Of a stretch of 64,000 nucleotides of DNA, positions 10,729 through 55,891 are shown one piece after another (position 1 is the stretch's first letter; every line of letters begins with the position of its first letter). This stretch comes from Candidatus Paceibacter sp. (GTDB lineage Bacteria > Patescibacteriota > Minisyncoccia > UBA6257 > 02-FULL-45-10c). The stretch is taken from positions 122,664 to 186,663 of the forward strand of contig DYGE01000001.1 in assembly GCA_020724845.1 (NCBI GenBank), given 5' to 3'. Made by a program: the position numbers and the translations under genes. Under the pieces are notes generated by a model. The model worked only from the letters and a program-made list of their open reading frames with translations. It did no database searches and had not been told where the DNA came from.

Positions 10729-11988
10729 TTATTTTCTTAAAATATCGGCCCCTATTGCCCTTAGGCGCTCATCTAATTTTTCGTACCCGCGGTCAATTTG
10801 CTCAATATTATCCAGCTCCGATTCGCCTTTAGCGACCAAGGCCGCAATAACCAAAGTAGCGCCGGCGCGCAGATCTAAACTTCCTATCTTTGCGCCATGA
10901 AGCTGTGTCGGGCCGGAAATGAGCGCTCGGTGCGGATCTAAGATAACCGCGTCCGCGCCCATTTTTTTGAGTTCATCAATATATTTTAATCTATTTTCGT
11001 ACATAGTGTCAAAAATTAAAGAACCTCCTTGGGCTTGAGTCGCTAGTATTCCGAACGGCGCCTGCAGATCAGTCGGCAACCCAGGGTGCGGCATAGTCTT
11101 AACTTTAGCCGCCCGCAGTGAAGATTTTTGTCCGTTAACTATCAAGACATCGCCCTTAAAACTAAAAACGACGCCGAATTCTTTCAATTTCTGTAAAAAA
11201 GAGTCTAGGTGTGATTCTTCCGCTCCGACGATATTCAGATTGCTTTTAGTAGCCGCGCTCAAAATGGCAAAAGTCCCGGCCTCTATCGGATCATTGATAA
11301 TTTCGTACTCAATAAGACCGGCGGCTTCGCGATTACCAGGGGAAATTGAGAATTCATGGCTGGCAGTATTCTCTACAACCGTTCCTAACTCTCTTAAAAA
11401 CCCGATTAAATCCCAGACATGCGGCTCAATAGCTGCCAGCTTAATTTTAAAAGGGTGAGCGAATCCGAGCATTAAAAGATTCTCCGTAGCCGTAACGCTT
11501 AACTCCTTGAGGGTGATGCTCGGCAGTTTTACTTTCCCCAGCTGCATCAGGTAAACTCCGGAATCGGAATCAAAATTTACGCCCGCGCCCAGCTCGGCAA
11601 AAGCCTCCAAATGAGTGTCAATTGGACGCGCGCCGATATTGCATCCGCCCGGCATCACGAACGAAATTTTCCCAAAGCGGGCAAGCATGGGCCCAATCAG
11701 CAATATTGAGGAGCGGATTTGCCCCATCAATTCCTGGTCCAATTTCTCCGGATCAAGATCCTTATTGTCAATCTCAATAACATGTTCAGACAGCCAACGC
11801 TGCCTTGACCCCATACTCTTTAGAATTTCCAGAATTTTTAAAACATCGCCGATTCTTGGGATATTTTTCAGTACGCATGTTCGGCTGGTCAGCAGAGTGG
11901 CCGCGATAATCGGGGTTGCCGAATTCTTAAATCCGCCTACCTCAATATCTCCCCGCAGCGGCGCTCCGCCATTAATGATGAATTTCAT
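10729..11988 (-). CDS. murA: UDP-N-acetylglucosamine 1-carboxyvinyltransferase
   Basis: MurA N-terminus MKFIINGGAPLRGDIEV and the EPSP-synthase-fold length of 419 aa. Confidence 0.9.
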   Translation of the reverse strand: MKFIINGGAPLRGDIEVGGFKNSATPIIAATLLTSRTCVLKNIPRIGDVLKILEILKSMGSRQRWLSEHVIEIDNKDLDPEKLDQELMGQIRSSILLIGPMLARFGKISFVMPGGCNIGARPIDTHLEAFAELGAGVNFDSDSGVYLMQLGKVKLPSITLKELSVTATENLLMLGFAHPFKIKLAAIEPHVWDLIGFLRELGTVVENTASHEFSISPGNREAAGLIEYEIINDPIEAGTFAILSAATKSNLNIVGAEESHLDSFLQKLKEFGVVFSFKGDVLIVNGQKSSLRAAKVKTMPHPGLPTDLQAPFGILATQAQGGSLIFDTMYENRLKYIDELKKMGADAVILDPHRALISGPTQLHGAKIGSLDLRAGATLVIAALVAKGESELDNIEQIDRGYEKLDERLRAIGADILRK

Positions 11989-12082
11989 TAATTAAATAAT
12001 ACCTCAATTCCACTGCCACTTTCCAATCTCTTTACGTTTGGTTAAAAAAGTTGTAAAGTATTGAAGAACAGAATCCAGATCT

Positions 12083-13405
12083 ATGACTCTAAGAACAAGA
12101 AGAATAATTTTTTATCTTTTCGCGGCGCTCTTCATACTAATAGGCGCGGTATCAATTTTTTATTCCAGCGGCTGGCGATTTGACCTAGAAACCTTTGAAA
12201 TAAACAAGCTCGGCGCGCTTTTTTTAAACATAACTCCGGAGGGCGCGACCATCGCGATTGATAAAAATACGTTTGACTTCAGCCCAAGTTTTTTAAAATC
12301 CGGCACTTTAATTGCCAACCTCTTTCCCAAGACATACACGGTAAAGGTTATGAAAGAGGGCTATCAGCCATGGACTAAAGAGATCCAGGTGTATCCTTCT
12401 TTGGTGACAGAGGTTCCCTCAGTCGTATTATTGCCGGAAAAGTTGGATTTAGGAGATCCAATTAACGAAGAAGTTACTAACTTTTGGATCGGTCCGAAAA
12501 ATATAATCGTTCTAAAAAATGGGAGATTGGAATTCCAGTCCCATAGAATTTTAGGCGCGGAGGTTTGGAAATGGTCAAATTCTGGAACAGCAGTTATCAC
12601 TAAACAAGATGGCAACTATTTCTTCATAGACCTGGAAAAACCGACCAGCGCGTTAAATCTGAAACTGGTCTTTGATAATTTAAACAAAGCCGGAGACGGA
12701 CAAATTTTGGACATAGATTTCCATCCTGCGCAAGATAATAAATTTATTGTGTTAGCCAGCGATGGACTGCATATTTTAGACGCTCAAAAGCTAACTTTAT
12801 CACTAATTGAAGCGGGAGCCGTTAATACATTCTCAACCCAAAACAACGAATTATTTTATGAGAAAACCGGGCAAATTTTTGCCTATAACCTGACTATCCA
12901 CTCCAATAGCCTTTTAACAGAGCAAGTTTTTGACGGCATTAGAAAAATCCAAGTATCTCCGTCCGGATATTATTTGTCCATTTTGGAAAACTCCGGAGCG
13001 CTCTATGTCTTCGACCGAAAGTCTTTAACCGCCTCTAAAATATCAGAGAATGCCGCTTATTCATTATTCTCGCCCAATAGCAAAAAAATAGCCTCGGTTA
13101 ACTCAAATCAGGAGTTAACCGTCTATCCGCTCAATGAGCCGGTTGAAGGGCTAAAAAACAGTTGGCAAGGGCCGGCCAATTTCCGTATCGGATCTCTCAA
13201 GAAAAATTCTATTTCCTGGCATGCAAATTCCGCCTATCTATTTATCAAATATCCGTCCACTCTGTATCTTTTAGAAGCAAATAACCTCCCCCCTATTAAC
13301 TTCCAAGTTATTGATCTGGAAAACTCTCAATATCAATACCGCGCGAGCTCTAACACTCTCTACCTTCTTAAAGGAGGCAGCTTATATAAACTAGCTCTTG
13401 GGTAA
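12083..13405 (+). CDS. Membrane-anchored protein with a PEGA-like domain followed by repeats
   Basis: N-terminal TM helix and the motif NITPEGATIAIDKNTF. Confidence 0.4.
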   Translation: MTLRTRRIIFYLFAALFILIGAVSIFYSSGWRFDLETFEINKLGALFLNITPEGATIAIDKNTFDFSPSFLKSGTLIANLFPKTYTVKVMKEGYQPWTKEIQVYPSLVTEVPSVVLLPEKLDLGDPINEEVTNFWIGPKNIIVLKNGRLEFQSHRILGAEVWKWSNSGTAVITKQDGNYFFIDLEKPTSALNLKLVFDNLNKAGDGQILDIDFHPAQDNKFIVLASDGLHILDAQKLTLSLIEAGAVNTFSTQNNELFYEKTGQIFAYNLTIHSNSLLTEQVFDGIRKIQVSPSGYYLSILENSGALYVFDRKSLTASKISENAAYSLFSPNSKKIASVNSNQELTVYPLNEPVEGLKNSWQGPANFRIGSLKKNSISWHANSAYLFIKYPSTLYLLEANNLPPINFQVIDLENSQYQYRASSNTLYLLKGGSLYKLALG

Positions 13406-24620: not shown

Positions 24621-24869
24621 TTATCGGAAGAAAGTGTTGCCGTTCCGCACCGCATACCAGATGTAAGCGAGTACGAGAACAACCGCTAAAGGAAGGGCAA
24701 ACGAGGAGAATAAGCCAATCACCAGAGCCAGCGCCCAGAATACTCCGTAAGCGCTGACTAAGAAGAGAATGGCCCGCATCAGCAAGCCGCCGGAGGATCC
24801 CTTCAGCAGGTACTTGAGAAGCGCCAAAACGAGCGGATTCAGTAAGAGCTTACGCAGGATCGGAGGCAT
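24621..24869 (-). CDS. Small two-TM membrane protein (82 aa)
   Basis: Two hydrophobic helices. It lies in the GC-rich cassette and overlaps the upstream ORF by 20 nt. Confidence 0.4.
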   Translation of the reverse strand: MPPILRKLLLNPLVLALLKYLLKGSSGGLLMRAILFLVSAYGVFWALALVIGLFSSFALPLAVVLVLAYIWYAVRNGNTFFR

Positions 24870-25200
24870 TGCCCTCCGCGCCTCCTTTGTCGATCTTGGT
24901 CTCCTCAGCGGTCGTCTCGATCACCTGATCCGTCTGACCGACCTCTTTGACGTAGCCCTCCAAAGCCGCCCTGGCGCCGGCGACAACCGACTCCACGGCT
25001 TCGCTGTGGGTCTGGCCCACCTTGCGAAGCGGCTCGTAACGCCCGTAGAGCAGGCGCTTCAGCTGAAGGTTCGGATCCACCGAACGCTTCGCCGTCTCCA
25101 CCACTTCGGCGCCGGCTCGCTTCGCGAGACCGAGTATGTCCTGTCCGACTTTCAGCGCCGCCTGTCCGAGCGATTCCTTCCCGGGTCTTCCTCCCGTCAT
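24850..25200 (-). CDS. Small soluble Ala/Gly/Val-rich hypothetical protein (116 aa)
   Basis: GC-rich coding region; the AAAGGAGAGG RBS sits 7 nt upstream of the ATG. Confidence 0.4.
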   Translation of the reverse strand: MTGGRPGKESLGQAALKVGQDILGLAKRAGAEVVETAKRSVDPNLQLKRLLYGRYEPLRKVGQTHSEAVESVVAGARAALEGYVKEVGQTDQVIETTAEETKIDKGGAEGNASDPA

Positions 25201-37412: not shown

Positions 37413-37483
37413 TCGGGCTGCTGGGAATCGAACCCAGACTAAATCCACCCCATGGACTCGTACTACCACTATACTACAGCCCG
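37413..37483 (-). tRNA. tRNA-Pro (anticodon GGG); no CCA encoded
   Basis: The hand-folded cloverleaf has a 7 bp acceptor stem (CGGGCTG/CAGCCCG), D-arm GTAT/GTAC, anticodon stem AGTCC/GGATT with loop ATGGGGT, T-arm CTGGG-TTCGATT-CCCAG and discriminator A. Confidence 0.75.
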
Positions 37484-43490: not shown

Positions 43491-43542
43491 ATCAAAAAAT
43501 AAGGCCCACCTTGCGGTGAGCCTTTGTGATAAAAGTCAATTA

Positions 43543-44208
43543 CTACTTAGTAACCTGAAGCGGGTCCATCGTGCCGGTCTCGTAAGCCTCGCGCGTGCTC
43601 TTAGTAAGCACGATCAGATACATCTGCTCGCGAGCCTCCGTGCCGCGCAGGACCTTGGTTCCAATCCTGGCCTCCAATCCCTGGCTGGGGAAACCCAGCC
43701 AACCCACGACCCGGCTCCGAACCAACCCCTTCTCGCGCCACACGTCATAGCCGCGAAGCTGATCCAGAAGCTTGGTCTGCTTGTTCTTATACGCCTCCCG
43801 AAGAGAGGCGACCAAGCTGCCAACACGGTCGTAGATGTCCAGGCCTTTCAGATCTGGATAGGCCTCCATGATCGCCGAAAAGAACGGCGTTCCTTGGCCA
43901 TATCCCATCTTTCCGTTCTCCCCTTCGTAGCGGCCTTTCACCGCGTCCGAGAGAATCTGGTCGAACTTCTCCGACTTCAGATTGGCAATGCCGATCTGCT
44001 CGTGGAAGTTCGAGATCAGGTTGGAGAGCTCGTTCTGGTTGTCCGAGTACTGCGCGTTCAGCTGCTTCTCGCGGGCGATTCCTTCGTTACGAACGCCGTC
44101 CACATAGAAGAAGAGCACCGCGCCCGCGGCCAAAAGGACCGCGAGCAGGCCGCCGAGCGCCACCAGACCGACTACCAGCGCGCTGCCACTGTCTTTCCCG
44201 TTCTTCAT
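43543..44208 (-). CDS. lemA: LemA family protein
   Basis: N-terminal TM helix plus a LemA-like helical domain (GIAREKQLNAQYSDNQNELSNLIS...). The coding GC is about 60%, an outlier for this window. Confidence 0.75.
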   Translation of the reverse strand: MKNGKDSGSALVVGLVALGGLLAVLLAAGAVLFFYVDGVRNEGIAREKQLNAQYSDNQNELSNLISNFHEQIGIANLKSEKFDQILSDAVKGRYEGENGKMGYGQGTPFFSAIMEAYPDLKGLDIYDRVGSLVASLREAYKNKQTKLLDQLRGYDVWREKGLVRSRVVGWLGFPSQGLEARIGTKVLRGTEAREQMYLIVLTKSTREAYETGTMDPLQVTK

Positions 44209-44282
44209 GATTTTTCTCCTCTTTGCTCCAGCATCTGCCGGAGCGGTTCTTGTCCCGACTCAACATCGGGACAGCCCAGCGA

Positions 44283-45767
44283 TCAGCGATAAGTTCTTCG
44301 CCACCGCGGGGCGTACGGCCACGCTCTTTCCCCTACTAGAATCGCCGCAATCCATGCCAGCATAGAAGCCAAGAAGGCCCCGATAGCAATCCAGATTTTC
44401 TGCTTCCTCGTAAGCTCTATTTCACTCTTAAGGTATTCAAACCCGCGCATGCGCACCCTTTGAAACTTGCTACTCGGATCATCCAGGCCCCAAAAGATGC
44501 GGTTAAGCATGCCTTTGCCATGGACCAGCTCCGCAGTCTGGTGCCGCAGATTGTTCTCGCTCATCCGAAAGACGAATTTCCCCTGAATCTTTCCGATCAA
44601 CGATTCCGGAGTCAAAGGGCTGCCTGACAGAGATTCCCTTATGGTAGCCGTCATATGCTCATTGCCAAGGGGCATGCCGGTAATGGCTCTCGCCCAACTC
44701 ACCGAATTGCCGTCACTGGTACCCACCAGAACAATAATGCTGTTCTTGCTGATAGCGTTCTTTTGAAAAAACTTCGGATTCTGCCAGTAGGCCTTAAGCG
44801 CCAACAGGTACTCGTCCGGATTGGCGGACACTTCGTCGTTTTTCACAATGACTAAGTGCAAGTCGCCTTCCAGTTCGGTGCCGATACCGGCGTTCAAATA
44901 AGACAAACTCTTCTGCCAGCCGTAATCATTGCCGGGGTTAAATCCAACGAAATACGCCTTACGCGCGTGATAAAAATCATGCACATCAGTCGTAAGCGCC
45001 GGAAGCAACCCTTTGGCTAGATACTTCTCAATCGCGCCGGAATGCTGCTGCAAGATGGTTCTCTCGCTTGCCAAAATGAAGTTGTCGTATCTGGCCCGCG
45101 TGGTAACCGGCCCCGGTTCTCCGGAACTGACTCTCTCCTGGACTCTCTCCCAGAAAGGCGGGATGCCTGTACCAGCCCTGCTAATCACATAATCCGGAAC
45201 ATTGACCCCAGTCCGCCAGCGATGAGCCTGCGGGTTATCCGGGAGACGATGCTCGCTGATCGTGTAATCACCGAGCGTCGTTTGAACTGTGTAAGTCGTC
45301 TCCTGATCAACATAAGGACAGCTATGATACCGCTTCTCTCTGCGCGTGCAAGTCTTATGAACCCGACGCCTATTCTCCCCGCTACCGGTATAGTAGCTAC
45401 AGTCGTAGCTTACAGTAACCCAGTACGGATCGCAGTCGTATTCGTAACGGCAAGGGCCGTCGCGAGTACAGCGGTAAACCTTGGTCAAGGCCTTCAGCTC
45501 CCAACCATTCCGGTATTCATAGAACCCGAGGTTGTTCGCTTGCGCCATTTTCCAGCCCCCGTAGAGGCTCAACGGAACGAGAAGGACGCTAATAGCGGCT
45601 AAGCCAATGGCGTACTCCGTCCAGGTGATCTCCTTATCGCTATTGGAAGAGTCCAAAGCGAACTTAACCAACAAACCTGCGATAGCAGCGGCAATGACCG
45701 CTAAGATCGCTAGAGCAAACATCGGCATGCCATACACCTCCCCTATAGGATTTTTCAGGTGCTGCAA
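44283..45767 (-). CDS. LemA-associated membrane protein (N- and C-terminal TM; DUF2207/TPM-like?)
   Basis: A 494 aa protein with TM helices at both ends, adjacent to lemA, with elevated GC. Confidence 0.4.
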   Translation of the reverse strand: MQHLKNPIGEVYGMPMFALAILAVIAAAIAGLLVKFALDSSNSDKEITWTEYAIGLAAISVLLVPLSLYGGWKMAQANNLGFYEYRNGWELKALTKVYRCTRDGPCRYEYDCDPYWVTVSYDCSYYTGSGENRRRVHKTCTRREKRYHSCPYVDQETTYTVQTTLGDYTISEHRLPDNPQAHRWRTGVNVPDYVISRAGTGIPPFWERVQERVSSGEPGPVTTRARYDNFILASERTILQQHSGAIEKYLAKGLLPALTTDVHDFYHARKAYFVGFNPGNDYGWQKSLSYLNAGIGTELEGDLHLVIVKNDEVSANPDEYLLALKAYWQNPKFFQKNAISKNSIIVLVGTSDGNSVSWARAITGMPLGNEHMTATIRESLSGSPLTPESLIGKIQGKFVFRMSENNLRHQTAELVHGKGMLNRIFWGLDDPSSKFQRVRMRGFEYLKSEIELTRKQKIWIAIGAFLASMLAWIAAILVGERAWPYAPRWRRTYR

Positions 45768-45811
45768 ACTGACGATATTATAGCTTAAATTTAATATAAT
45801 GTCAAATTATT

Positions 45812-51008: not shown

Positions 51009-52343
51009 TTAGACAATCACGCCTCCGCCAAGCATCATTATAGAATTTGAACCCTCCTTCGCTGAAGCTTCCGCCTTCGCCAAGGCTTCGGCGGACAGGT
51101 CGGCGGGCAAGTAAAACACCGCCGATTGCCCAGAGGCAACAAATTTTTGAGGTTGGCTAAATACAAGCTTGAATAAAGAATTATGAATCACGAATGATGC
51201 GGGAACTAGCGGCTGCCTATAGCGCACTCGCGCTAAAACTGGAACGCTTAATTCCTTATTCTTAATTCCCCTGCCGCCTGCCCGGCCAGGGGGCAGGCTT
51301 AATTCCATATTTACAAGATTCACATCTCTTAACTCAATCTCCTTTTTGTAAAGCATCGGGTCGTCCTCCGAAGCTATAACGACAGTATTAGTTTTCACAT
51401 CCTTGCTCGCCACATAAAATGGTTGTTGGTTATTAGTTGTCGGTTGTAAGTTCACCCCTATGCGCCTTTGGCCGATCGTATAAAAATACGCTCCGCTATG
51501 CTTTCCGACTGTTTCGCCAGCGGAATTCAAGACTAAGCCCATTTTTTCCGGAATGTAATTACCCAAAAAATCCTTAAGCGTAACCTGCCCAAGAAAACAA
51601 ATCCCCTGCGAATCCTTTTTCTCGGCGTTCGGCAAGCCAAATTTCTTTGCCAGCTTCCTCACCTCCGGCTTGGTATATTCACCAATCGGAAACAAACAAT
51701 GCCGTAGCTGCTCCTGCGTCAGCGTCCATAAAAAATAGCTTTGATCTTTATTTTTGTCTTTAGCGATATATAAAGAAAAAATATTTTGGGTCAATCTGCC
51801 GAATTGTCGTGGAGAAACTACGGAAGCGCCAAAAGATTGGTTTCCGCTGAAGGCGGAATTTTGGCGCTGAGGCGTAGCGGGCACTCGCCGCTGGAGCGAG
51901 TGAACCGCGGTTCTCGCAGACGATTCGACTGAGCGACTTCTGCCCAAGCGGACATAGTGCCCGGTCGCCACATAGTCCGCCCCCATTTCCAATGCCTTCT
52001 GCAGAAACAATCCAAACTTAATCTCCTTATTGCACATCACATCCGGATTCGGCGTAAGACCTTTGCGATATCCGTCAACCATATATTCAACCACTTTATC
52101 TTTATATTCCTGCTCCATGTCAAAAACATAAAATGGAATGCCTAAAACCTCCGCCGCTCTTCGCGCGTCCTCCGCATCCTGTTCCGCGCAACCGTCAACG
52201 TTGTAGCACTTTAAATGCGCGCCAACCACGTCAAAACCGCGCTCTTTCAAAAGCGCCGCCGCAACAGACGAATCCACTCCCCCGCTCATTCCCACGAATA
52301 CCTTTTTGATCTTTTTACTTTTTGGCATAGCTATAAAATACAA
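51009..52343 (-). CDS. mnmA: tRNA-specific 2-thiouridylase, with a low-complexity insertion of about 60 aa
   Basis: PP-loop VGMSGGVDSS, then CNKEIKFG, ATGHY and DQSYFL motifs. An Ser/Arg/Gln-rich insert lies between HYVR and DQSYFL. Confidence 0.8.
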   Translation of the reverse strand: MYFIAMPKSKKIKKVFVGMSGGVDSSVAAALLKERGFDVVGAHLKCYNVDGCAEQDAEDARRAAEVLGIPFYVFDMEQEYKDKVVEYMVDGYRKGLTPNPDVMCNKEIKFGLFLQKALEMGADYVATGHYVRLGRSRSVESSARTAVHSLQRRVPATPQRQNSAFSGNQSFGASVVSPRQFGRLTQNIFSLYIAKDKNKDQSYFLWTLTQEQLRHCLFPIGEYTKPEVRKLAKKFGLPNAEKKDSQGICFLGQVTLKDFLGNYIPEKMGLVLNSAGETVGKHSGAYFYTIGQRRIGVNLQPTTNNQQPFYVASKDVKTNTVVIASEDDPMLYKKEIELRDVNLVNMELSLPPGRAGGRGIKNKELSVPVLARVRYRQPLVPASFVIHNSLFKLVFSQPQKFVASGQSAVFYLPADLSAEALAKAEASAKEGSNSIMMLGGGVIV

Positions 52344-53697: not shown

Positions 53698-54431
53698 AAA
53701 CCCCACCCCTTTATTGCCTTTTCCCACCTCTGCAAATTCCCACAGTCAAACCATTTGCCGCTTGATTTATAAGCCGCCAGCTTACGCTCCGCCGCTAGCT
53801 TGGGAAACAAGTCTTTTTCAATCATTAAAAATTTCTCCCCGGCTTGGATTTTGCCAGCCAGATGTTCGCGAACCTTCGGATCAATCAGATAAAGGCCGGA
53901 AGAAATAAAATTCGTCGGCGGATTTTCCGGTTTTTCTAAAAAATTACAAATGTGATCGCCCTCACAAATTAATACGCCATATTCGTTCGGGTTCGGCACC
54001 TCCACCGCCGCAATCGTCGCCAGCCCACGAACTTTTTGATGATGCGCAGCCATCGCAGAAAGATCTACTTCTTTCAACTCATCGCCGTTCGTCAAAAAGA
54101 ACGGCTCATCTCCGGTCCAGGTATGAAGCTGGTGCGCCCAATAGCCGAAAGTGCCCATCGGCTCCTCTTCCGCCATCAGATTAATCCATAGTCCGTTAAA
54201 ATTATTCTGATAACGCCTTAGCCACCAGGAAAAATCCTCCAGATCATCTTTACGTACGGTAATCGCCACCTCCTCTACCCCGTGCGCCTTAAACATTCCA
54301 ATGAGGTAGTTGATGATCGGCTTTTTATTCACCGTAAGTAGCGGCTTAGGAGTTTCCAAAGTAACCGGATAAAGCCGAGTTCCTTTCCCGCCGGCAAGAA
54401 TAATCGCCTTTTTAATTCTTATTCCGTTCAT
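53694..54431 (-). CDS. Sugar-phosphate nucleotidyltransferase (G1P thymidylyl/uridylyl- or mannose-1-P guanylyltransferase-like)
   Basis: N-terminal AIILAGGKGTRLYPVT motif. Confidence 0.7.
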   Translation of the reverse strand: MNGIRIKKAIILAGGKGTRLYPVTLETPKPLLTVNKKPIINYLIGMFKAHGVEEVAITVRKDDLEDFSWWLRRYQNNFNGLWINLMAEEEPMGTFGYWAHQLHTWTGDEPFFLTNGDELKEVDLSAMAAHHQKVRGLATIAAVEVPNPNEYGVLICEGDHICNFLEKPENPPTNFISSGLYLIDPKVREHLAGKIQAGEKFLMIEKDLFPKLAAERKLAAYKSSGKWFDCGNLQRWEKAIKGWGL

Positions 54432-54471
54432 ACACCTAAATATAACCTATTTCCGGTCTGCAGGGTTAACC

Positions 54472-54499
54472 AAAAAAATATCCACGTCCGAAGACGTGG
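54472..54499 (-). terminator. Intrinsic terminator ending the GC-rich non-coding transcript
   Basis: On the minus strand CCACGUCUUCGGACGUGG is followed by AUAUUUUUUU. Confidence 0.65.
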
Positions 54500-55100
54500 A
54501 TGAAGGGGGTCGGAAAACGCACTTGGCGATCCTGAAAGGCGAGGTTTTCCCTGGCCTTAATCAAGTTCGCTTATCAGTATCCAGCTTGCCCCGATGTTAT
54601 GGGTAAGCGGGCGGGAATCAGATGTTGAAGGCCAGAGATCCGGCGCGCGCGATTGGCGCGCGGCCCATGGATTGCCTTCTTCCGAGGATTCCCACTGGAT
54701 ACTTGTCACCCTGCATTTCGCAAGGCTGCGTTTTCCGGTGAAGGTACGAAAGAGAAGTGGCTTTTGCCGGTGCTTGATTTACTCGCGTGCTTCAGACGCA
54801 TTTGCGAAGTAAATCCCGACAGGCCCGGATGTCGCGACACCCGAGACGCTCCATATGGGAACACAGCCCATAGAAGCGAAGCCGACCTGATGCGCCGAGG
54901 GAGCGAGTCACGGGGGATCGTGCCCGTTCCTTTGTACCCCACCAACTCCGCCTCAATTGCGGTAGCTGGACTCGGTGACCAGGTTCTAACCATCCCAGAG
55001 CGTTGTTGCGCCCTGGGTGCATTCTCCGCGGCGCCAGCCGACGCCCCCGTATCGGGAGGGCCAGCTCGTTCTGCGCCTGACCGGAGAAGATTTTCAAGGT
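54500..55100 (-). ncRNA. Candidate large structured ncRNA, or an unusually long attenuator-type leader, of about 620 nt; identity unknown
   Basis: About 58% GC against about 45% around it. It has no credible ORF in any frame; the six-frame ORFs here are Arg/Ser/Pro-rich artefacts that overlap on both strands. It is bounded by a consensus promoter (55108-55135) and the intrinsic terminator (54472-54499), and contains many local GC helices. Confidence 0.45.
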
Positions 55101-55107
55101 TAGGGAC

Positions 55108-55135
55108 ATTATAGCATAATAACAGAATCTGTCAA
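55108..55135 (-). promoter_or_regulatory. Consensus sigma70 promoter firing leftward
   Basis: On the minus strand TTGACA (55135-55130), a 16 nt spacer, then TGCTATAAT, an extended -10 (55116-55108). The -35 hexamer is supplied by the GGGGTTGACA end of hairpin repeat H6. Confidence 0.55.
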
Positions 55136-55215
55136 CCCCTTAGTAGAACTTCGGCTAGGCCGCCTTTAGCGGCCTTATCGCTGAAAGCCACCGAAGTTTC
55201 ACTAAGGGGTCAAGC
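55131..55215. repeat. GTCAACCCC-foot hairpin repeat H6
   Basis: gtcaacccc-ttagtagaacttcgg ... ccgaagtttcactaagggg-tcaagc, with an inner hairpin ggccgcctttagcggcc. Confidence 0.55.
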
Positions 55216-55318
55216 TCTATGACCAAAAACTCTTTGTAATTCACCTTCACAATGTTCGGAAATAAAGAAGGAGGCTCGCTGTTGAAAATTTTTTAGTAGG
55301 ATACTATAATTCAAAAAC

Positions 55319-55891
55319 ATGCTTAGTTATAATGAATTAAAAATTGGAACAATTTTTGAACTGGACGGCCAGCCGTATGAAGTTTTGTCATACGAATTTT
55401 TGCGCATGCAGCAGAGAAAACCGGTCGCCAAGACCAAAATTAAGAATTTAGTCACCGGTCAGGTGCTGGACAGAAACTTCCACCAGAACGAAACTTTCAG
55501 CGAAGCAGAGGTAGATAAACAAGAAGTTACTTATCTTTACAACCACCGCGGGGAATATTGGTTTTGCGAGAAAGGAAATCCAAAAAACCGATTCTCTCTC
55601 ACCGAAGAACAGCTCGGGAGCGCGGCTCAATTCTTGAAAGCTAATACCGACGTAACTGCGCTGAAATGGGAAGAAAAAATCCTGAACATCAAGCCGGCTA
55701 TCAAAGTTGACCTAGAAGTTACCGAAGCGCCGCCAGCCGAACGGGGCAATACTGCCCAGGGGGGCAACAAGCTGGTAACTCTGGAAACCGGAGCTAAAGT
55801 CACGACTCCGATGTTCATAAATACTGGTGACATCGTCAGGGTCAATACGGAAACCGGGCAATATGTGGAAAGAGTGGAAAAGGCCAAATAA
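55319..55891 (+). CDS. efp: Translation elongation factor P
   Basis: Full-length similarity to EF-P: N-terminal KIGTIFELDGQPYEVL and C-terminal GDIVRVNTETGQYVERV. Confidence 0.9.
   Translation: MLSYNELKIGTIFELDGQPYEVLSYEFLRMQQRKPVAKTKIKNLVTGQVLDRNFHQNETFSEAEVDKQEVTYLYNHRGEYWFCEKGNPKNRFSLTEEQLGSAAQFLKANTDVTALKWEEKILNIKPAIKVDLEVTEAPPAERGNTAQGGNKLVTLETGAKVTTPMFINTGDIVRVNTETGQYVERVEKAK

Follow-up and report, generated by a model that had tools for sequence, protein, structure and literature searches.

The subject of this work is a GC-rich interval on the minus strand of a stretch of 64,000 nucleotides (nt) of contig DYGE01000001.1 (assembly GCA_020724845.1, Candidatus Paceibacter sp., positions 122,664 to 186,663), which is called the window throughout. 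The interval lies between efp (55319-55891, plus strand, divergent) and the minus-strand genes NTP_transferase-murC-mnmA. We consider it likely, if short of certain, that 55101-54472 on the minus strand is a stand-alone gene for a structured noncoding RNA (ncRNA), which belongs to a new, fast-evolving and modular family, acts in trans and is probably part of a ribonucleoprotein. Judging from the flanking genes, the window belongs to Harrisonbacteria-like Parcubacteria of the Candidate Phyla Radiation (CPR), and no RNA-related genes are encoded in the gene context inspected around the locus. All coordinates are window positions; the promoter end of the RNA gene is at 55135 and its terminator end at 54472. 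The features of the locus, in the direction of transcription, are the following:

55108-55135, minus strand: sigma-70-type promoter, with TTGACA at 55135-55130, a 16-nt spacer and an extended -10 element TGcTATAAT at 55116-55108
54753-55101, minus strand: lineage-specific GC-rich 5' domain of about 345 nt, with three predicted sub-domains (z of the minimum free energy, -4.6)
54738-54752, minus strand: single-stranded 5' tail CUUUCGUACCUUCAC of the core, with consensus U..GU.C.UU (YGUWCYUU) in the alignments, unpaired in all single-sequence folds
54727-54737, minus strand: 5' strand CGGAAAACGCA of the closing helix P1, pairing with 54521-54511
54708-54726, minus strand: P2 hairpin GCCUUGC-GAAAU-GCAGGGU, stacked on P1 (helix 2; 10 pairs, 92% paired, 6 with changes on both sides)
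54577-54702, minus strand: P3, a branched arm (helices 3-9) with a variable tip and the P3c hairpin
54526-54570, minus strand: P4 hairpin (helices 10-11; 9 of 13 pairs with changes on both sides)
54511-54525, minus strand: junction CAAG (AAGU invariant) followed by the P1 3' strand UGCGUUUUCCG
54472-54501, minus strand: intrinsic terminator, AUCCACGUC-UUCG-GACGUGGAU followed by AUUUUUUU
54439-54469, minus strand: probable separate promoter of NTP_transferase, TTAACC at 54469-54464, a 19-nt spacer and TATATT at 54444-54439, 8 nt from the ATG at 54431

The transcription unit and its noncoding status

The promoter and the terminator of the RNA are real and statistically unusual. TATAAT at 55113-55108 is directly preceded by TG (55116-55115), so that the promoter reaches a score of 12/12 plus TG, and the 64-kb window has two perfect TTGACA-N16-18-TATAAT sites, where 0.03 would be expected. 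The RNA is predicted to begin near A55101. The terminator consists of a 9-bp stem with a UUCG loop at 54501-54480 and a run of seven Ts at 54478-54472, located 630 nt downstream of the promoter, and the end of the T-run is 40 nt away from the ATG (54431) of the NTP_transferase gene. The GC content of the transcript is 58%, against 45.9% for the whole window, with 300-nt segments reaching 0.55-0.62. A first-pass annotation of the locus had described a near-consensus minus-strand promoter at 55135-55108, a textbook terminator about 620 nt downstream and 40 nt upstream of a sugar nucleotidyltransferase gene, and a transcribed interval of about 58% GC in a genome of about 45%, and all of these descriptions agree with what we found. 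The second perfect promoter site of the window, TTGACA-N17-TATAAT at 45777-45805 (minus strand), is directly 5' of an open reading frame (ORF) of 494 amino acids (aa) at 44283-45767.

The same annotation saw no plausible ORF in the interval, and this view holds. Overlapping ORFs of 153 aa (plus strand) and of 105 and 95 aa (minus strand) are present; a Pfam search of five ORFs of the region gave no match, and the 153-aa ORF, the sole window ORF queried in this way, had no relative among 5.8 billion proteins. In a related locus (L103; L numbers designate the loci of relatives) a gene-called antisense ORF retrieved only its identical copy in a protein search, with no protein origin. When the ORFs were compared between members of the family none was common to them. 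Indels of 1, 4 and 5 nt distinguish homologous loci, and between close members the substitutions are distributed without preference among the three codon phases. Translated and protein searches gave none of the frameshifted homology by which a degraded pseudogene was to be recognized, and neither a conserved frame, nor a phase bias, nor translated homology of the kind expected of a protein-coding gene or pseudogene was found.

A conserved core in related genomes

The loci of relatives were fetched through homologues of the NTP_transferase protein, and eight further distinct relatives of the RNA were found in Harrisonbacteria-like metagenome contigs. Four were recovered by nhmmer, namely L088 (= L108), L103, L104 (= L105) and L116, and three by the covariance model R1, which was built from five members with the window RNA among the seeds and was run without filters (L117, E~1e-7; L107, E~5e-7; L089, E~3e-3). 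These three matches span model positions 1-247 with large internal deletions, which remove the P3 tip in L117 and L107 and the P4 region in L117. The last, L106, is a partial relative that has only the tail, a P4-like hairpin and the 3' motif in common with the others. The window RNA, itself a seed member, scores 161 bits against R1 (E~1e-56), and all the features of the family are present in it: the tail YGUWCYUU, P1 ending in AAGU, the P3c loop with CUUA, the P4 loop GGG..A.C, the promoter and the terminator.

The transcription signals are conserved along with the RNA. TTGACA-N16-TGnTAnnnT precedes seven of the eight relatives, the other (L089) having TTGACA-N17-AATAAT with TGC, and all relatives end in a GC-rich hairpin followed by a U-run. 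Seven of the nine members are directly upstream of the NTP_transferase gene, while the L089 copy sits between mnmA and comEC and not between efp and NTP_transferase. Each locus has one copy of the core, and none is present elsewhere in the 64-kb window. Total lengths of the RNA range from about 260 nt in L117, a compact RNA of 266 nt, to 630 nt in the window. A search with nhmmer of the single window sequence against 80 efp loci of other Parcubacteria gave no match, and later profile hidden Markov models and a helix/motif descriptor gave no members beyond the nine contigs; as far as seen, the family is restricted to Harrisonbacteria-like Parcubacteria, uncultured groundwater bacteria of the CPR. 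Other GC-rich patches were considered as further copies and rejected: those of the window at 24800-25100 and 43516-44292 are ordinary coding regions, and the one of L005, close to efp, encodes a small protein.

The sole conserved part of the RNA is its 3' portion of about 245 nt (window 54752-54509). In the consensus structure P1 and the three arms P2, P3 and P4 meet in a four-way junction, and the P1 3' strand is followed by a linker before the terminator. In L088, L103 and L104 only a few nt lie between the tail motif and the start predicted for the transcript. P1 (helix 1) is 11-13 bp long; its 13 pairs are 97.8% paired and six show changes on both sides, some of which amount to a 1-bp register shift. 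The tip of P3 (helices 5-7) is absent from L117 and L107 and is therefore dispensable; in the window it includes a GCGCGC/GCGCGC helix at 54661-54645 (helix 7), and this helix, which the first-pass annotation had singled out as an example of short GC helices (gcgcgc-gattg-gcgcgc), covaries in relatives. The P3c hairpin (54613-54588) carries the loop GCUUACCCAUAACAUC with an invariant CUUA. The stem of P4 covaries as well, being AAGGC/GCCUU in the window and GGGAU/AUCCC, AGAGU/GCUCU and AAUGC/GCCUU in relatives, and its loop CAGGGAAAACCUCG (54553-54540) is nearly invariant, with GGG..A.C as the family consensus. A descriptor scan based on the junction and the P1 3' strand recovers all members.

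Pairing of the tail with the P4 loop, as a pseudoknot, and pairing of the tail with the P2 3' strand are each compatible with some members and show no clean covariation. The tail was also considered as an anti-Shine-Dalgarno mimic or a seed, Shine-Dalgarno motifs being rare and targets not enriched. None of these roles is claimed.

Base pairs were counted in alignment A8, which contains seven distinct sequences related to each other and is fitted to the model: 93.2% of 444 pair cells are standard pairs, and changes on both sides are seen in 37 of the 72 pairs (66 cells). The covariation score is 0.425, against 0.189 +/- 0.017 for shuffled alignments. In a control where the 3' partners were slid by 1-3 columns, 38-41% of the cells were paired and 4-10 pairs had changes on both sides. 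The collection of homologous regions and the test of covariation proposed in the first-pass annotation have thus given eight relatives and a signal of paired changes that none of 500 shuffles reached, and these two results together identify a real RNA gene. Moreover, the core is only 44-60% identical between subgroups, against 79-86% for the adjacent NTP_transferase proteins, which indicates fast sequence drift under structural constraint.

The predicted fold is far more stable than those of shuffles, with z scores on the minus strand of -6.5 for the whole RNA, -4.6 for its first 350 nt and -5.9 for the core of 251 nt at the 3' end. The plus strand also folds well (z = -5.2), so that energy alone does not give the strand; the minus strand was assigned because of the promoter, the terminator and the numerous G-U pairs of the consensus, which are compatible with that strand only.

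Around the core, additions differ from lineage to lineage. The last predicted helix of the window 5' domain, GGCUU...AAGCC, is just before the conserved tail, and each end of the domain has a copy of the tail motif. This domain showed no similarity to any fetched locus and contains no second copy of the core. No Intron_gpI match was found in it at E<=10, with a model that is insensitive to some subgroups of group I introns; the 5' domains of other members (55-215 nt) are too small or unrelated. Elsewhere, 5' additions measure 55 nt in L116, about 205 nt in L106 and about 150 nt in L107, the last together with a 3' domain of 130 nt, and L089 has both 5' and 3' additions. The family consequently consists of a conserved core with lineage-specific peripheral domains.

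Several other elements were seen at these loci. In L107 the terminator hairpin at 1003-1057 (CCGCCGGGGAACC..CCUCCUGUNCAGAGGAA..GGUUCCCCGGC) is 84-88% identical to the terminators of L088, L103, L104 and L116, subgroups between which the RNA cores are only about 45% identical. Such conservation may reflect selection on the hairpin, or recombination. Directly before the RNA promoter the window has an imperfect hairpin of about 75 nt (55140-55215, the hairpin itself at 55146-55199), bracketed by GCTTGAC and GGGGTTGACA, so that TTGAC, part of the -35 box, occurs twice. L103 (2228-2380) carries at precisely this position a different insert of about 150 nt bounded by inverted repeats, and L088 and L104 have no insert. 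Both inserts look like insertions similar to miniature inverted-repeat transposable elements that would regenerate the -35 box.

A second family of structured elements occupies the same efp/NTP_transferase spacer in L091 (3459-4000) and L103 (2760-2960). It is made of nested long inverted repeats around GC-rich cores, which share TCGGG(C/A)TGGCGGTGGGATC and (A)ATGGAGG(C/T)G, and has no Rfam match apart from a spurious microRNA one. In L085 (3253-4000) the place of the RNA in the spacer is taken by a second, paralogous NTP_transferase-like ORF. In L106 (1-1700) the RNA gene is adjoined by a cassette resembling a diversity-generating retroelement, with an RVT_1 reverse transcriptase, a bAvd-like ORF and an Asn/AAC-rich template-like stretch; homologous reverse transcriptase and Avd genes are near efp in two other Parcubacteria (L007, ~11290-12470, and L046, ~260-1680). 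A link between the RNA and this cassette was rejected, no reverse transcriptase or Avd being present in the window or in the other RNA-bearing loci. Finally, mnmA of the window (51009-52343, minus strand), especially at 51800-52100, has Arg/Ser/Ala-rich in-frame inserts of about 30, 10 and 16 aa compared with its L089 orthologue, the first of which corresponds to a local GC-rich patch and divides the Pfam match to the HUP domain into two parts.

Known RNA families and alternative explanations

The window and its relatives were compared with Rfam 15 (4227 models, including OLE, ROOL, GOLLD, raiA, HEARO, 6S, RNase P, the signal recognition particle (SRP) RNA, transfer-messenger RNA (tmRNA), T-box, riboswitches and group I/II introns). 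At gathering thresholds the only match in the whole window was tRNA-Pro at 37413-37483; region 54300-55400 searched at E<=10 with lax filters gave three chance matches of 16-17 bits, and a permissive scan (E<=5) of the eight related loci gave no match inside the RNA. The first-pass annotation had found no convincing RNase P, tmRNA, SRP, T-box or group II domain V signature and had asked for Infernal to be run against all of Rfam; no family matched the window RNA, even at E<=10, or its eight relatives. A blastn search against phages and plasmids returned one chance match of 54 nt, and pattern scans of viral contigs returned none. With no match in Rfam 15 and no description found in the full-text literature, the RNA family is new.

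A divergent housekeeping RNA (RNase P, 6S/Ms1-like, SRP or tmRNA), missed by the Rfam models in a fast-evolving CPR lineage, is a first alternative, which we hold to be quite improbable. The maximal-strength promoter is like those of stable-RNA genes, modular expansions and fast drift around a core are typical of RNase P, SRP and 6S, and the gene can relocate, as in L089, so that spacers without the RNA are no proof of a genome without the gene. Against it stands the silence of the Rfam models in the window and in the eight relatives; in addition, ARAGORN, run on the window, detected no tmRNA. Neither the window sequence nor the family consensus contains the RNase P P4 strands (GGAAAGUCC / ACAGAA..GGCUUA), and the sequence has neither the GGAA/AGCA motif of SRP helix 8 nor a tRNA-like end. 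The likeness to bacterial RNase P RNA is in a core closed by pairing near its ends, in lineage-specific peripheral helices and in a strong promoter, whereas the universal P4 sequences and the pseudoknot topology are missing and no RNase P model matches at E<=10. With 6S and Ms1 the new RNA would share the character of an abundant trans-acting RNA whose structure is kept and whose sequence is not; those RNAs are hard to find by sequence and have often been located by synteny (PMC9130861). They form, however, a long, mostly double-stranded rod with a large central bubble, whereas in the consensus found here P1 and three arms meet at a four-way junction and the 5' tail is free, and no 6S model of Rfam matches.

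According to a second alternative, to which we give a slim chance, the RNA is a cis-acting leader, an attenuator or riboswitch that controls read-through into NTP_transferase-murC. The shared strand, the terminator 40 nt before the gene and the position of seven of the nine members speak for it. Yet NTP_transferase probably has a promoter of its own at 54439-54469, between the terminator and the ATG; this putative promoter failed the 16-18 nt spacer rule of the scan, and its TTAACC/TATATT aligns with TTAACT-N18-TATAAT in the RNA-less relative L086, with GTTATAAT-like or GTTATAT boxes adjoining the ATG in all other spacers. The orthologous efp/NTP_transferase pair works without the RNA, with spacers of 25-96 nt, in L086/87/93, L097, L109, L110-115, L118 and also L005, the closest species representative, which makes the RNA gene an extra unit between two divergent promoters. 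In L089 the RNA is followed by comEC after a gap of 250 nt. Moreover, a linker precedes the terminator, the terminator hairpins are long and stable, no anti-terminator is obvious in the RNA, and neither the obligatory position in the 5' untranslated region of a regulated gene nor the expression platform in competition with an aptamer, both expected of a riboswitch or attenuator leader, was seen. The very long attenuator leader offered as an alternative in the first-pass annotation is contradicted by the downstream promoter, the RNA-less gene pairs and the L089 position, and we infer that the RNA does not regulate its neighbouring genes in cis.

As a separate observation on the window, Shine-Dalgarno motifs precede only about 10 of its 51 ORFs, and the -10 boxes of efp (55282-55319) and NTP_transferase (54431-54469) are 8-13 nt from the ATG, which suggests that leaderless or near-leaderless mRNAs are common in this organism.

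The RNA might also come from, or serve, a mobile or accessory element, as a remnant intron, a guide or scaffold whose protein gene was lost, or a companion of a diversity-generating retroelement; this is equally doubtful. In its favour are the patchy presence among close relatives, the different position in L089 and the duplication of the tail motif around the window 5' domain, and the efp/NTP_transferase spacer does behave as a hot spot of insertion (the inverted-repeat inserts of the window, L103 and L091, the paralogue of L085, the reverse transcriptase and bAvd genes of L106). On the other hand, no transposase, reverse transcriptase, nuclease or integrase adjoins the RNA in the window, L088, L103, L104, L116 or L117, and the RNA gene has no terminal repeats or target duplications. 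The models of group I/II introns, HEARO and the rest of Rfam are silent, the phage, plasmid and viral-contig collections gave no match, and the single copy per locus, with none elsewhere in the 64-kb window, is also against a mobile origin. That the interval is a non-functional GC-rich remnant, a degraded gene or a chance structure, is extremely improbable and already largely refuted by covariation: GC-rich DNA typically contains long ORFs that overlap on the two strands, and the plus strand folds well, but translated homology is lacking, promoter and terminator are conserved in all members, and compensatory changes keep 93% of the pairs while identity falls to about 45-60%.

A modular RNA family in the Candidate Phyla Radiation

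The stand-alone, trans-acting RNA proposed at the outset is therefore the reading that we prefer. A conserved promoter of maximal strength drives the RNA and its own intrinsic terminator ends it. The conserved functional unit is the 3' core of about 245 nt, to which different lineages have added peripheral domains of different kinds. In the mechanism that we envisage, the RNA would act in trans as an abundant, stable and folded molecule, most likely as a scaffold of a ribonucleoprotein and less likely as a ribozyme, and the invariant tail, P3c loop and P4 loop may be contact sites for a protein or another RNA.

Several points weigh against this reading. The evidence base consists of only 7-9 distinct sequences from one narrow clade, the alignment used for the pair counts was fitted to the model, and the part of the P1 covariation that is a register shift is common to the window, L117 and L107. 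The structure of the 5' domain is predicted from folding energy, no fetched locus having a related domain, and the transcript ends and the abundance of the window RNA are predictions only. The gene context points to no protein partner, target or activity, and sequences complementary to the tail show no enrichment around the start codons of the window. Furthermore, the presence of the RNA at the efp/NTP_transferase spacer is patchy among close relatives, which is hard to reconcile with an essential role, except if the gene changes its location, as it does in L089.

The first-pass annotation had suggested a large structured ncRNA of the OLE/ROOL/GOLLD/raiA type. An independent, noncoding and structured unit has indeed emerged, now with relatives and covariation, whereas no OLE, ROOL, GOLLD or raiA model matches it and only the 3' 245 nt or so are conserved, rather than a large whole. 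The raiA motif RNA, which occurs in Firmicutes and Actinobacteria, is comparable in being a stand-alone multi-helix RNA of about 200-250 nt, with its own promoter and terminator and not a leader, near translation- or competence-related genes and with a poorly understood function; its helices and conserved bases are different, and the large variable add-on domains belong to the new RNA. ROOL and GOLLD, often found in prophages near tRNA genes, are also large orphan bacterial RNAs with conserved and variable parts and a patchy distribution, while the new RNA has no phage context and no match in phage or viral collections. OLE RNA resembles the window RNA in its size of about 600 nt, in being GC-rich with respect to the genome and highly structured, and presumably in forming a ribonucleoprotein. 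In OLE the entire RNA is conserved and there is a link to the oapA/B/C genes (PMC9723947), whereas in the new family conservation extends over 245 nt only and no associated protein genes were seen. As a kind, the new RNA is an orphan structured bacterial RNA, which joins raiA, OLE, ROOL and GOLLD without being related to them.

To our knowledge, very few classes of structured bacterial ncRNA longer than about 200 nt have been described, and none specific to the CPR was found in Rfam 15 or in the full-text literature. CPR organisms have tiny genomes in which many functions are missing. The core might be the RNA subunit of a CPR-specific ribonucleoprotein or ribozyme, with an activity unlike that of known bacterial RNAs, which may compensate for a lost protein function, and the add-on domains, bringing the total to as much as 630 nt, might build higher-order assemblies as in ROOL, GOLLD and OLE; we regard this fuller proposal as unlikely. 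The claim is modest for now, given nine contigs of one clade. The family nevertheless shows clearly how, in nature, large and quickly changing peripheral domains can be accommodated by a small conserved core, and an RNA gene of 260-630 nt that is kept behind a consensus promoter in a genome of about 0.6-1 Mb is probably worth its cost.

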